Source: Patescibacteria group bacterium (GTDB lineage Bacteria > Patescibacteriota > Patescibacteriia > Patescibacteriales > UBA12465). Taken from it: a DNA stretch of 64,000 bases. Below, piece after piece: positions 4,406-4,486 of this stretch; position 1 is the stretch's first letter; the number at the start of each line of letters is the position of its first letter. The translations under genes and the position numbers were made by a program. The notes beneath the pieces are model-generated. The model made no database searches. It was not told the origin of the DNA and was given only the letters and a program-made list of their open reading frames with translations. The DNA lies in assembly GCA_038323715.1 (NCBI GenBank), contig JBBQHF010000005.1:2621-66620 (forward strand). Direction: 5' to 3'.

Positions 4406-4435
4406 TTGACAAAAATACTATCTTTATGGTATTGT
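4406..4435 (+). promoter_or_regulatory. Sigma70-type promoter
   Basis: TTGACA (4406-4411), 18-nt spacer, TGgTATTGT extended -10 (4427-4435). Confidence 0.5.
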
Positions 4436-4486
4436 TTTTTATTACTTTGACAATTTAAATTAACCTTAAAAATAGGAGGAAATATC
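4435..4486 (+). promoter_or_regulatory. Conserved AU-rich leader with strong SD (copy 1 of 3)
   Basis: TTTTTTATTACTTTGACAATTTAAATTAACCTTAAAAATAGGAGGAAATATC-ATG. Near-identical strings occur at 17137-17189 and 12309-12347. Confidence 0.5.

Follow-up and report, generated by a model that had tools for sequence, protein, structure and literature searches.

Background

Here we describe a module of about 80 nucleotides (nt), made up of a promoter, a leader box and a Shine-Dalgarno (SD) sequence, that stands upstream of three unrelated transcription units in a 64,000-nt stretch of a Patescibacteria group genome (contig JBBQHF010000005.1 of assembly GCA_038323715.1); this whole stretch is called the window below. 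The Patescibacteria, or candidate phyla radiation (CPR), are mostly uncultured and have few recognisable regulators, and to our knowledge almost nothing is known about their gene regulation. The closest described category for such a repeat is the family of putative mobile promoters, which are similar stretches of upstream non-coding DNA before non-homologous genes of one genome, some families crossing taxa, collected at ≥80% identity over ≥50 nt in the region -150 to -50 and reported to be of unknown function and mode of spread (Matus-Garcia, Nijveen & van Passel 2012, PMC3575422). The window's copies share with these families that the downstream coding sequences are non-paralogous, and their identity is borderline: copies 1 and 3 are 79% identical over their first 62 nt and agree in 64 of 86 alignment columns (74%) from the -35 box through the ATG. 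They differ in position, since the module occupies -81 to -1 and includes leader and SD; in history, two of the three copies being ancestral to their genes and not recently moved; and in that conservation above the level of synonymous sites has been shown for the cassette.

By analogy, the cassette appears to resemble in function the leaders that combine an A/U-rich enhancer with a downstream SD, such as the T7 gene 10 leader with its 'epsilon' element UUAACUUUA, the E. coli atpE leader and the tobacco mosaic virus (TMV) omega sequence. The likeness lies in an unstructured A/U-rich leader whose short specific motif precedes a strong SD by a few to about 20 nt; UUACUUUAAC and ACAAUU in the window may be set beside UUAACUUUA and ACAAUUAC, although such short A/T-rich agreements could be chance. 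Unlike these enhancers, the window's box stands at a variable distance from the SD, some copies have no SD, and the host hardly uses SD sequences at all. A DNA-level counterpart is lac O1, a promoter-proximal operator centred near +11; operators of the lac type are dyad-symmetric and have a known repressor. The window shares with it a conserved element of about 20 bp beginning at the start of a sigma-70 promoter and differs in that its box has neither symmetry nor a candidate regulator. As for initiation in SD-poor bacteria, PMC3155529 describes Bacteroidetes in which SD sequences are generally absent and the sequence upstream of starts is A/T-rich and G-poor. The window belongs to a different phylum, and in a small minority of its genes a strong SD is retained alongside a conserved leader box.

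Results and discussion

A repeated module upstream of three unrelated genes

We compared the 90-nt regions upstream of the 55 main open reading frames (ORFs) of the window in 1485 pairwise local alignments. The top score, 31, belongs to copies 1 and 3 of the module, against a mean of 8.7, a standard deviation of 1.76 and a 99.9th percentile of 17; copies 2 and 3 rank second (18) and copies 1 and 2 joint fourth (15.5), copy 2 being 63-69% identical to the other two. A sequence-only reading of the window had reported a near-identical module at three sites, and the positions are as claimed, these being the most alike upstream regions among the 55 genes. Copy 2 needs correction: it had been described as a shorter copy at 12309-12347, where its core and SD do lie, but it really starts at the -35 box at 12265.

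The repeat is also rare. A 27-mer common to copies 1 and 3 has two matches in the window where 0.00 are expected, and the 18-mer core TTACYTTRACAATTWAAA at up to two mismatches has exactly three, against 0.42 expected, a number that none of 100 shuffles gave. The looser pattern ACYTTRACAATT at up to two mismatches matches 58 times against 54 expected, which is chance level, and we therefore count three copies in the window and no hidden, degenerate ones. The sequence-only reading had named as fatal to its proposal a motif that stands upstream of most genes or at random in AT-rich intergenic DNA; the motif is not common, and this test does not refute the proposal. The likeness is confined to the module, as the 100 nt upstream of it and the first 150 coding nt score at background (7-14.5). 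All three copies lie on the + strand in sense orientation upstream of an ORF, and the three proteins encoded downstream, of an IMPase-superfamily fold (gene 1), a membrane protein (gene 2) and a PurF-like enzyme (gene 3), are unrelated, no E value in an all-against-all blastp comparison falling below 3.

The modules in an SD-poor genome

An SD-like pentamer at -20 to -4 is found in 5 of 68 window ORFs, and three of the five are the modules, which bears out the earlier statement that SD sequences are nearly absent elsewhere in the window. Positions -15 to -1 of the window's starts are about 90% A/T and about 5% G, the GC content of the window being 35%; T stands at -1 in 64% of the genes, and many promoters are of the TGTGTTATAAT type, their leaders being AU-rich and 20-30 nt long. 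Because the starts are SD-less, A/T-rich and G-poor and the leaders short and AU-rich, these features point to an initiation that would be SD-independent by default in the window's lineage. A literature search on SD usage in Patescibacteria gave no study of the topic. We also considered CTTAAA as a general leader motif of the window and dropped it, the enrichment (15 of 55 genes against about 10% expected) being too weak.

The proposal that the module is a shared expression or regulatory cassette fits these observations, in that its copies precede unrelated, separately terminated units and coincide with the only clear SD sequences of the region.

Anatomy of the copies

The copies follow a common plan of a sigma-70 -35 box, a TG-extended -10, a T-tract, a 19-nt box, an A-rich linker and an SD (coordinates in Table 1). 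All three were counted as sigma-70 promoters of the extended -10 class (TTGACA-like -35, spacer of 16-18 nt, TGn, -10 of the form TAnnnT), and all three SD sequences are purine-rich, complementary to CCUCC and 5-10 nt before the start codon. The box has the consensus ATTACYTTRACAATTWAAA with the core TTAACAAT and lies at or near the predicted transcription start in each copy. The box-to-SD linker of copy 1 is 14 nt long and A/U-rich. Relative to copies 1 and 3, copy 2 has about 14 additional nt between -10 and box. In copies 1 and 3 transcription is predicted to start at the first A of the box (A4441 and A17144), because the spacing from the -10 is normal and the T-A-T triplet fits the Y-R-Y 'start' element described at transcription starts (PMC12641261).

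Two other features of the copies were examined and set aside. The TTGACA inside the core might be taken for a second -35 box; on inspection of the sequence, no usable -10 lies 16-18 nt downstream of it in any copy. The segment 4458-4480 resembles a T3 RNA polymerase promoter at 16 of 23 positions, which we judge to be chance, the segment not being common to the other copies. Elsewhere in the window, the leader of the SD-less gene 27262-27912 holds TACCTTTAAAATTAA on the - strand at 27913-27935, a near-variant of the box that also resembles the core CCTTTAAAATT of the 'type II' leader described below.

Conservation of the parts and the history of the leaders

Between the window and its relatives (loci from other genomes are given L numbers), fourfold-degenerate sites are 33-40% identical where 28% is expected at random, and among the closer relatives only 41-45%; synonymous sites between the window and its relatives are essentially saturated. 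Upstream of the PurF-like gene, the promoter segment covering the -10, the discriminator and the start, TGNTATATTTTTTTATTA, is identical at 18 of 18 positions in the window and in four relatives (L135, L136, L139 and L142). The constraint on this -10/T7/ATTA start region is far above what a plain promoter needs, and its T-tract and starting A may be regulatory in themselves, for example in nucleoside triphosphate (NTP) sensing. In the gene 2 orthologue of L142 (46-51% amino acid identity), the -35, the -10, the spacing and TTAACAATT(T)AAAA-n-GAAAGG are kept, and the stretch between -10 and box has become unrecognisable. For gene 1, the SD is kept in 6 of 6 orthologues examined, even in SD-poor genomes, and a degenerate box is seen in two or three of the six (TTTCTTTAACAAC in L133, TTTTTTAACAATTC in L134). 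The four close PurF-like orthologues carry after ATTA a different, 'type II' leader, ATTTAGTCCTTTAAAATTT..., with neither box nor SD, and we conclude that the window's PurF-like leader gained both in its own lineage.

Conservation in relatives, on which the sequence-only reading had made its proposal depend, is therefore real for the PurF-like promoter half, for the box and SD of gene 2 and for the SD of gene 1, and is only partial. Because these parts stay conserved while fourfold sites are saturated, the aligned sequences indicate that the parts of the cassette are under purifying selection, and that promoter half, box and SD are separable. The cassette is a real, selectively maintained control module, of an ordinary kind.

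The same comparisons bear on a simpler explanation, namely that one promoter and leader has been copied or converted between loci and supplies generic signals for strong expression, with no dedicated trans-acting factor. Families of similar promoters before unrelated genes are common in prokaryotes (PMC3575422), and the window's PurF-like leader is unlike those of its four close relatives and resembles copies 1 and 2. Moreover, the region upstream of gene 1 in L131 (764-873) is 76-79% identical to the type II region upstream of the PurF-like gene in L135 and L136 (9891-10000); taken with the type I cassette that these two genes share in the window, this hints that their upstream regions may have been exchanged, perhaps recurrently, or may be co-evolving. 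Generic signals, however, have no need of an exact TTAACAATT, yet it is kept in the gene 2 leader despite saturation and a protein identity of about 50%. Nor is the promoter half a general promoter consensus of the window, an idea that we tried and rejected, since TGNTATATTTTTTTATTA matches only copies 1 and 3; and copies from different metagenome-assembled genomes (MAGs) are as alike as copies inside one genome, which argues for constraint and not for recency. We regard plain promoter reuse as unlikely, while keeping it among the explanations that deserve serious weighing.

Distribution in other genomes

We scanned 596 Gb of genomes (with a 20-mer), the JGI metagenomes (with core plus SD) and the IMG/VR viral contigs for exact patterns, in collections that did not contain the window's own copies. 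The matches in all three were overwhelmingly single chance matches in AT-rich genomes of many phyla, and we abandoned the view that the element is ancient and widespread; the whole architecture occurs only in L034, in L044/L086 (a Patescibacteria contig) and in L015, deposited as Ignavibacteriaceae. L034 has two full copies and one partial within 8 kb. In L073 the box lies behind a promoter without an SD. A profile of three copies (nhmmer) found a full promoter and box at L135 2246-2303 (E = 3e-5). This copy lacks an SD and has a leader of about 75 nt, and its locus had been retrieved by way of the PurF-like protein, independently of the motif. No other full box came out of a position weight matrix (PWM) scan covering about 190 kb of DNA from relatives. 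From the scans, the L135 match and the PWM result together we conclude that the cassette is real, clade-restricted and of low copy number. Each cassette copy listed in L034, L044/L086, L015 and L135 precedes an ORF and reads in its sense direction. A literature search with the box sequence gave nothing relevant.

L034 (positions 1-8000 of CAYHCB010000001.1) is deposited as an 'uncultured Gammaproteobacteria' MAG and looks Patescibacteria-like, with 32% GC, SD-less starts and homologues of Falkowbacteria loci. It contains two tandem paralogous proteins of repeats of about 33 amino acids (aa; 3586-4758 and 5478-6761), each preceded by a cassette copy, and a SAM-I riboswitch at 6863-6977 before metK.

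It had also been suggested that the module is mobile, and a related view would make it a miniature transposable element or the remnant of an insertion sequence (IS) end with an outward promoter. A repeated intergenic unit of about 80 nt with a promoter does recall the Correia and ERIC-type elements (cited in PMC3575422). The copies, however, are bounded by no terminal inverted repeats or target duplications; their likeness reaches no further than the -45 region on one side and the ATG on the other, and every copy faces its gene in the same register. Phage and plasmid collections gave only chance-level matches (E of 0.07 or more), as did IMG/VR, and copy 2 stands at the orthologous position in the distant relative L142. 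No match to an IS, a phage or a plasmid turned up, nor any trace of transposition. For copy 2, and for the SD of copy 1, the association with the gene is ancestral, and only the PurF-like leader looks remodelled in the window lineage. The suggestion of a mobile promoter module is not supported by these results, and we rejected an origin in a miniature inverted-repeat transposable element (MITE), a Correia element, a REPIN, an IS, a phage or a plasmid, there being no shared bounding repeats and no database match. That the module is such a remnant we consider extremely improbable.

What the box may do

In loci that were not chosen by the motif, TTAACAATT at up to one mismatch occurs in the leaders of 7 of 21 SD-led starts and of 9 of 106 SD-less starts (one-sided Fisher p = 0.0055); in the window alone the counts are 3 of 4 and 3 of 29. 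In each of the three window copies the box precedes the SD, within a leader that is A/U-rich and folds weakly.

From these observations and from the conservation described above, we favour, at roughly even chances, the reading that a Falkowbacteria-like Patescibacterium has in this module a clade-specific expression cassette of promoter plus leader, in which the box would be a sequence-specific recognition site, because the exact TTAACAATT appears to be kept by purifying selection. A promoter of sigma-70 type in each copy would drive its unit, with transcription beginning at the A of T-A-T (A4441 and A17144) and, in copy 2, about 12 nt upstream of the box, so that the mRNA would begin with the box or have it near the 5' end. 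An essentially unstructured A/U-rich leader would follow, and then a canonical SD 7-8 nt from the ATG. Box and SD would jointly recruit the ribosome or a leader-binding factor, and a few unrelated transcription units would in this way be given their own promoter and SD-dependent initiation in a mostly SD-less genome. The history would be a mosaic, parts of the cassette being inherited or exchanged separately: the membrane gene (gene 2) would have had box and SD since before the split from its relatives, an SD would be a constant feature of the IMPase-fold family (gene 1), and the PurF-like gene would have retained the ancestral half of its promoter and acquired box and SD only in the window lineage.

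Whether the box acts on the mRNA or on the DNA is a narrower question. That it acts at the mRNA level, as a leader element together with the SD, we hold tentatively and at less than even chances; this level is slightly favoured over that of a DNA operator on account of the sense orientation of every copy, the lack of symmetry in the box and its association with the SD. Under the operator alternative, a single transcription factor would bind the box as DNA, at +1 to +19 (about +13 to +31 in copy 2), where a bound repressor would block initiation or early elongation and so co-regulate the units. It would account well for the fixed distance at which the box abuts the -10/T-tract in copies 1 and 3, L034 A and B, L086, L015 and L135 2246, for box copies that have no SD, and for a sequence-specific conservation that extends to two C residues otherwise surrounded by A/T; the strong conservation from -10 to +4 upstream of the PurF-like gene likewise suggests a regulatory initiation region. 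By inspection, however, the box has none of the dyad or direct-repeat symmetry used by dimeric regulators, although a monomeric or unusual binder would still be compatible. No regulator gene adjoins the copies in the window, where the neighbours are CMAS, BcsG, HD, PAS, DUF362 and NTPase genes; the target genes are functionally heterogeneous, all copies are sense, and a DNA operator does not predict the association of box and SD. An operator regulon is thus, in our estimate, a possible explanation with perhaps one chance in a few.

The leader might instead be a structured cis-regulatory RNA, such as a riboswitch, a thermometer or a hairpin that sequesters the SD, with pairing between the CYUU of the box and the AAGG of the SD. 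Such pairing with AAGG or AAAG can be drawn in copies 2 and 3, L015 and L133, and an inverted repeat of 16 nt with 75% complementarity joins 17136-17151 to 17176-17191. The leader of gene 1 in L140 also forms a 9-bp SD-sequestering hairpin (-13.3 kcal/mol). Against this, the folding energies of the leaders are only -1 to -6.4 kcal/mol (z from -1.2 to +1.0), the stretch predicted to pair with the SD changes from copy to copy, and copy 1 has no such pairing; box copies without an SD retain ACCTT, and a leader of about 45 nt is too short for known aptamers. An Rfam scan gave nothing at gathering score, the best matches reaching 10-18 bits where the cut-offs are 35-180. Given the weak folds, the inconsistent SD partners and the lack of an Rfam family, we rejected a riboswitch or SD sequestration as a general explanation, and regard a structured RNA of any such kind as very unlikely. 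The hairpin of L140, at about 9930-10000 of the cultured Minisyncoccus archaeiphilus (AP038758), has the core CCUUGUA/UACAAGG and is a candidate for translational control distinct from the box.

We stress that several observations weigh against a recognition site that works with the SD in the leader. The sample behind the association is small and partly motif-selected, and with the orthologues of genes 1 and 2 removed it shrinks to 4 of 18 versus 9 of 106 (p estimated at about 0.1). The distance between box and SD varies from 4 to 22 nt, which weakens a strict enhancer role, and the box occurs without an SD at L135 2246-2303, in L073 and at L086 5630. PurF-like orthologues of 77-78% amino acid identity do without box and SD; for this gene, then, the box is dispensable. 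The fixed position of the box just after the -10 in most copies suits a role at the DNA level equally well, the PWM scan of relatives' DNA came back empty, and the genes served by the cassette show no functional coherence. Finally, rRNA, sought in order to test for an anti-SD or for complementarity to the box, was found neither in the window nor in any fetched Patescibacteria locus; an extra complementarity of 16S rRNA to AAUUGUUAAGGUAAU, if true, would point to rRNA pairing.

A more far-reaching version of our favoured reading is that TTAACAATT plus a strong SD marks a small post-transcriptional regulon in SD-poor Patescibacteria, that is, a separate channel of SD-dependent initiation. We consider this improbable. 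If it were true, a trans-acting factor or the ribosome would read the box, and the set of genes could be switched independently of bulk SD-less translation.

Genes served and neighbouring features

The host is a Patescibacterium near Ca. Falkowbacteria, to which we refer as Falkowbacteria-like. The gene 3 protein clusters at 77% identity with the PurF-like protein of the complete Ca. Falkowbacteria genome CP066698.1; against the purF model TIGR01134 it scores 281.6 bits, under the cut-off of 350. Gene 2 encodes a fast-evolving membrane protein with 19 detectable homologues.

Gene 1 had been called an IMPase-like orphan, of which the first half is upheld by predicted structure and the second is not. 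It has 564 homologues at 50-81% identity, every one with a named source coming from Patescibacteria/Parcubacteria (CPR) and being annotated as 'hypothetical'. The protein has no match in Pfam or among Protein Data Bank (PDB) sequences. Its AlphaFold model (pLDDT 84, pTM 0.88) matches the structures of IMPase, CysQ, HisN and SuhB (Foldseek E about 1e-9, target TM about 0.7), and the motifs DPTDRS and EE are invariant in the family. The predicted IMPase/FBPase/CysQ/HisN/SuhB fold has about 120 extra residues, in a family that is large, uncurated and highly conserved.

The terminators that the earlier reading assigned to each unit were all three located (Table 1). Between convergent genes, a perfect 11-bp hairpin at 7316-7341 has runs of T on either strand and looks like a terminator that works in both directions.

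Over all loci, the functions behind cassette copies comprise the IMPase fold, PurF-like, membrane and repeat proteins, NMO, an ornithine/diaminopimelate (Orn/DAP) decarboxylase, HIT and unknowns. We had considered a functional regulon of the PurF-like enzyme, the IMPase fold, PNP and nucleotide salvage, which was suggestive in L133 and L134 and was not sustained by the other cassette-bearing genes.

The only known RNA genes of the window are an RNase P RNA of bacterial class A (174 bits) at 40501-40906 and a tRNA-Leu(CAA) at 46105-46189; because of these two the window is bacterial. In L133, a Patescibacteria contig, a LOOT RNA (RF03000, 72.7 bits) at 2122-2233 adjoins an integrase and phage-like genes.

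Table 1. Coordinates of the cassette copies, their parts, the genes served and their terminators (window positions unless a locus is named)
Feature	Position	Strand	Basis or remark
Copy 1, whole	4406-4486	+	sequence
Copy 1, -35 hexamer TTGACA	4406..4411	+	sequence; promoter scan TTGACA-18-TATTGT, 10/12 matches, TG present
Copy 1, extended -10 TGgTATTGT	4427..4435	+	sequence, promoter scan
Copy 1, T5 discriminator tract	4436..4440	+	sequence; predicted start A4441 in T-A-T (Y-R-Y) triplet
Copy 1, leader box ATTACTTTGACAATTTAAA	4441..4459	+	PWM 25.2 bits
Copy 1, SD AGGAGG	4474..4479	+	7 nt before ATG 4487
Gene 1, conserved Patescibacteria protein, IMPase-superfamily fold, 378 aa	4487..5623	+	homologues, predicted structure
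Gene 1 terminator	5650-5681	+	
Copy 2, whole	12265-12347	+	sequence
Copy 2, promoter TTGACA-18-(TG)AATTAT	12265..12294	+	promoter scan
Copy 2, -35 TTGACA	12265-12270	+	sequence, promoter scan
Copy 2, extended -10 TGtAATTAT	~12286-12294	+	sequence, promoter scan
Copy 2, leader box TTTACTTTAACAATTAAAA	12313..12331	+	PWM 24.6 bits; box and SD kept in L142 orthologue
Copy 2, SD AAAGGAA	12334..12340	+	7 nt before ATG 12348
Gene 2, 413 aa, N-terminal transmembrane, clade-restricted, plus 61-aa membrane ORF	12348..13795	+	
61-aa membrane ORF after gene 2	13610-13795	+	own SD
Gene 2 unit terminator	13840-13873	+	followed by run of eight U (to 13881)
Copy 3, whole	17110-17189	+	sequence
Copy 3, -35 hexamer TTGCGA	17110..17115	+	sequence
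Copy 3, extended -10 TGtTATATT	17130..17138	+	sequence; 17-nt spacer
Copy 3, T5 tract	17139..17143	+	sequence; predicted start A17144
Copy 3, leader box ATTACCTTAACAATTAAAA	17144..17162	+	PWM 27.3 bits
Copy 3, SD AAGGAG	17176..17181	+	8 nt before ATG 17190
Gene 3, PurF-like glutamine amidotransferase/phosphoribosyltransferase, 503 aa	17190..18701	+	
Gene 3 terminator	18727-18754	+	
PurF-like upstream segment TGNTATATTTTTTTATTA	window 17130-17147; L135 9935-9952; L136 and L139 9938-9955; L142 11512-11529		

Conclusions

Few concrete cis-regulatory elements can be seen in Patescibacteria, and the cassette is one of them. It predicts transcription starts, and it flags rare SD-dependent genes, among them those of a PurF-like enzyme and of a widespread uncharacterised family of IMPase fold. 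As a ready expression module, the cassette could be of use in the first genetic tools for Patescibacteria and, if it is true that the box has a dedicated binding partner, the pair would be among the first regulatory circuits defined for the clade.

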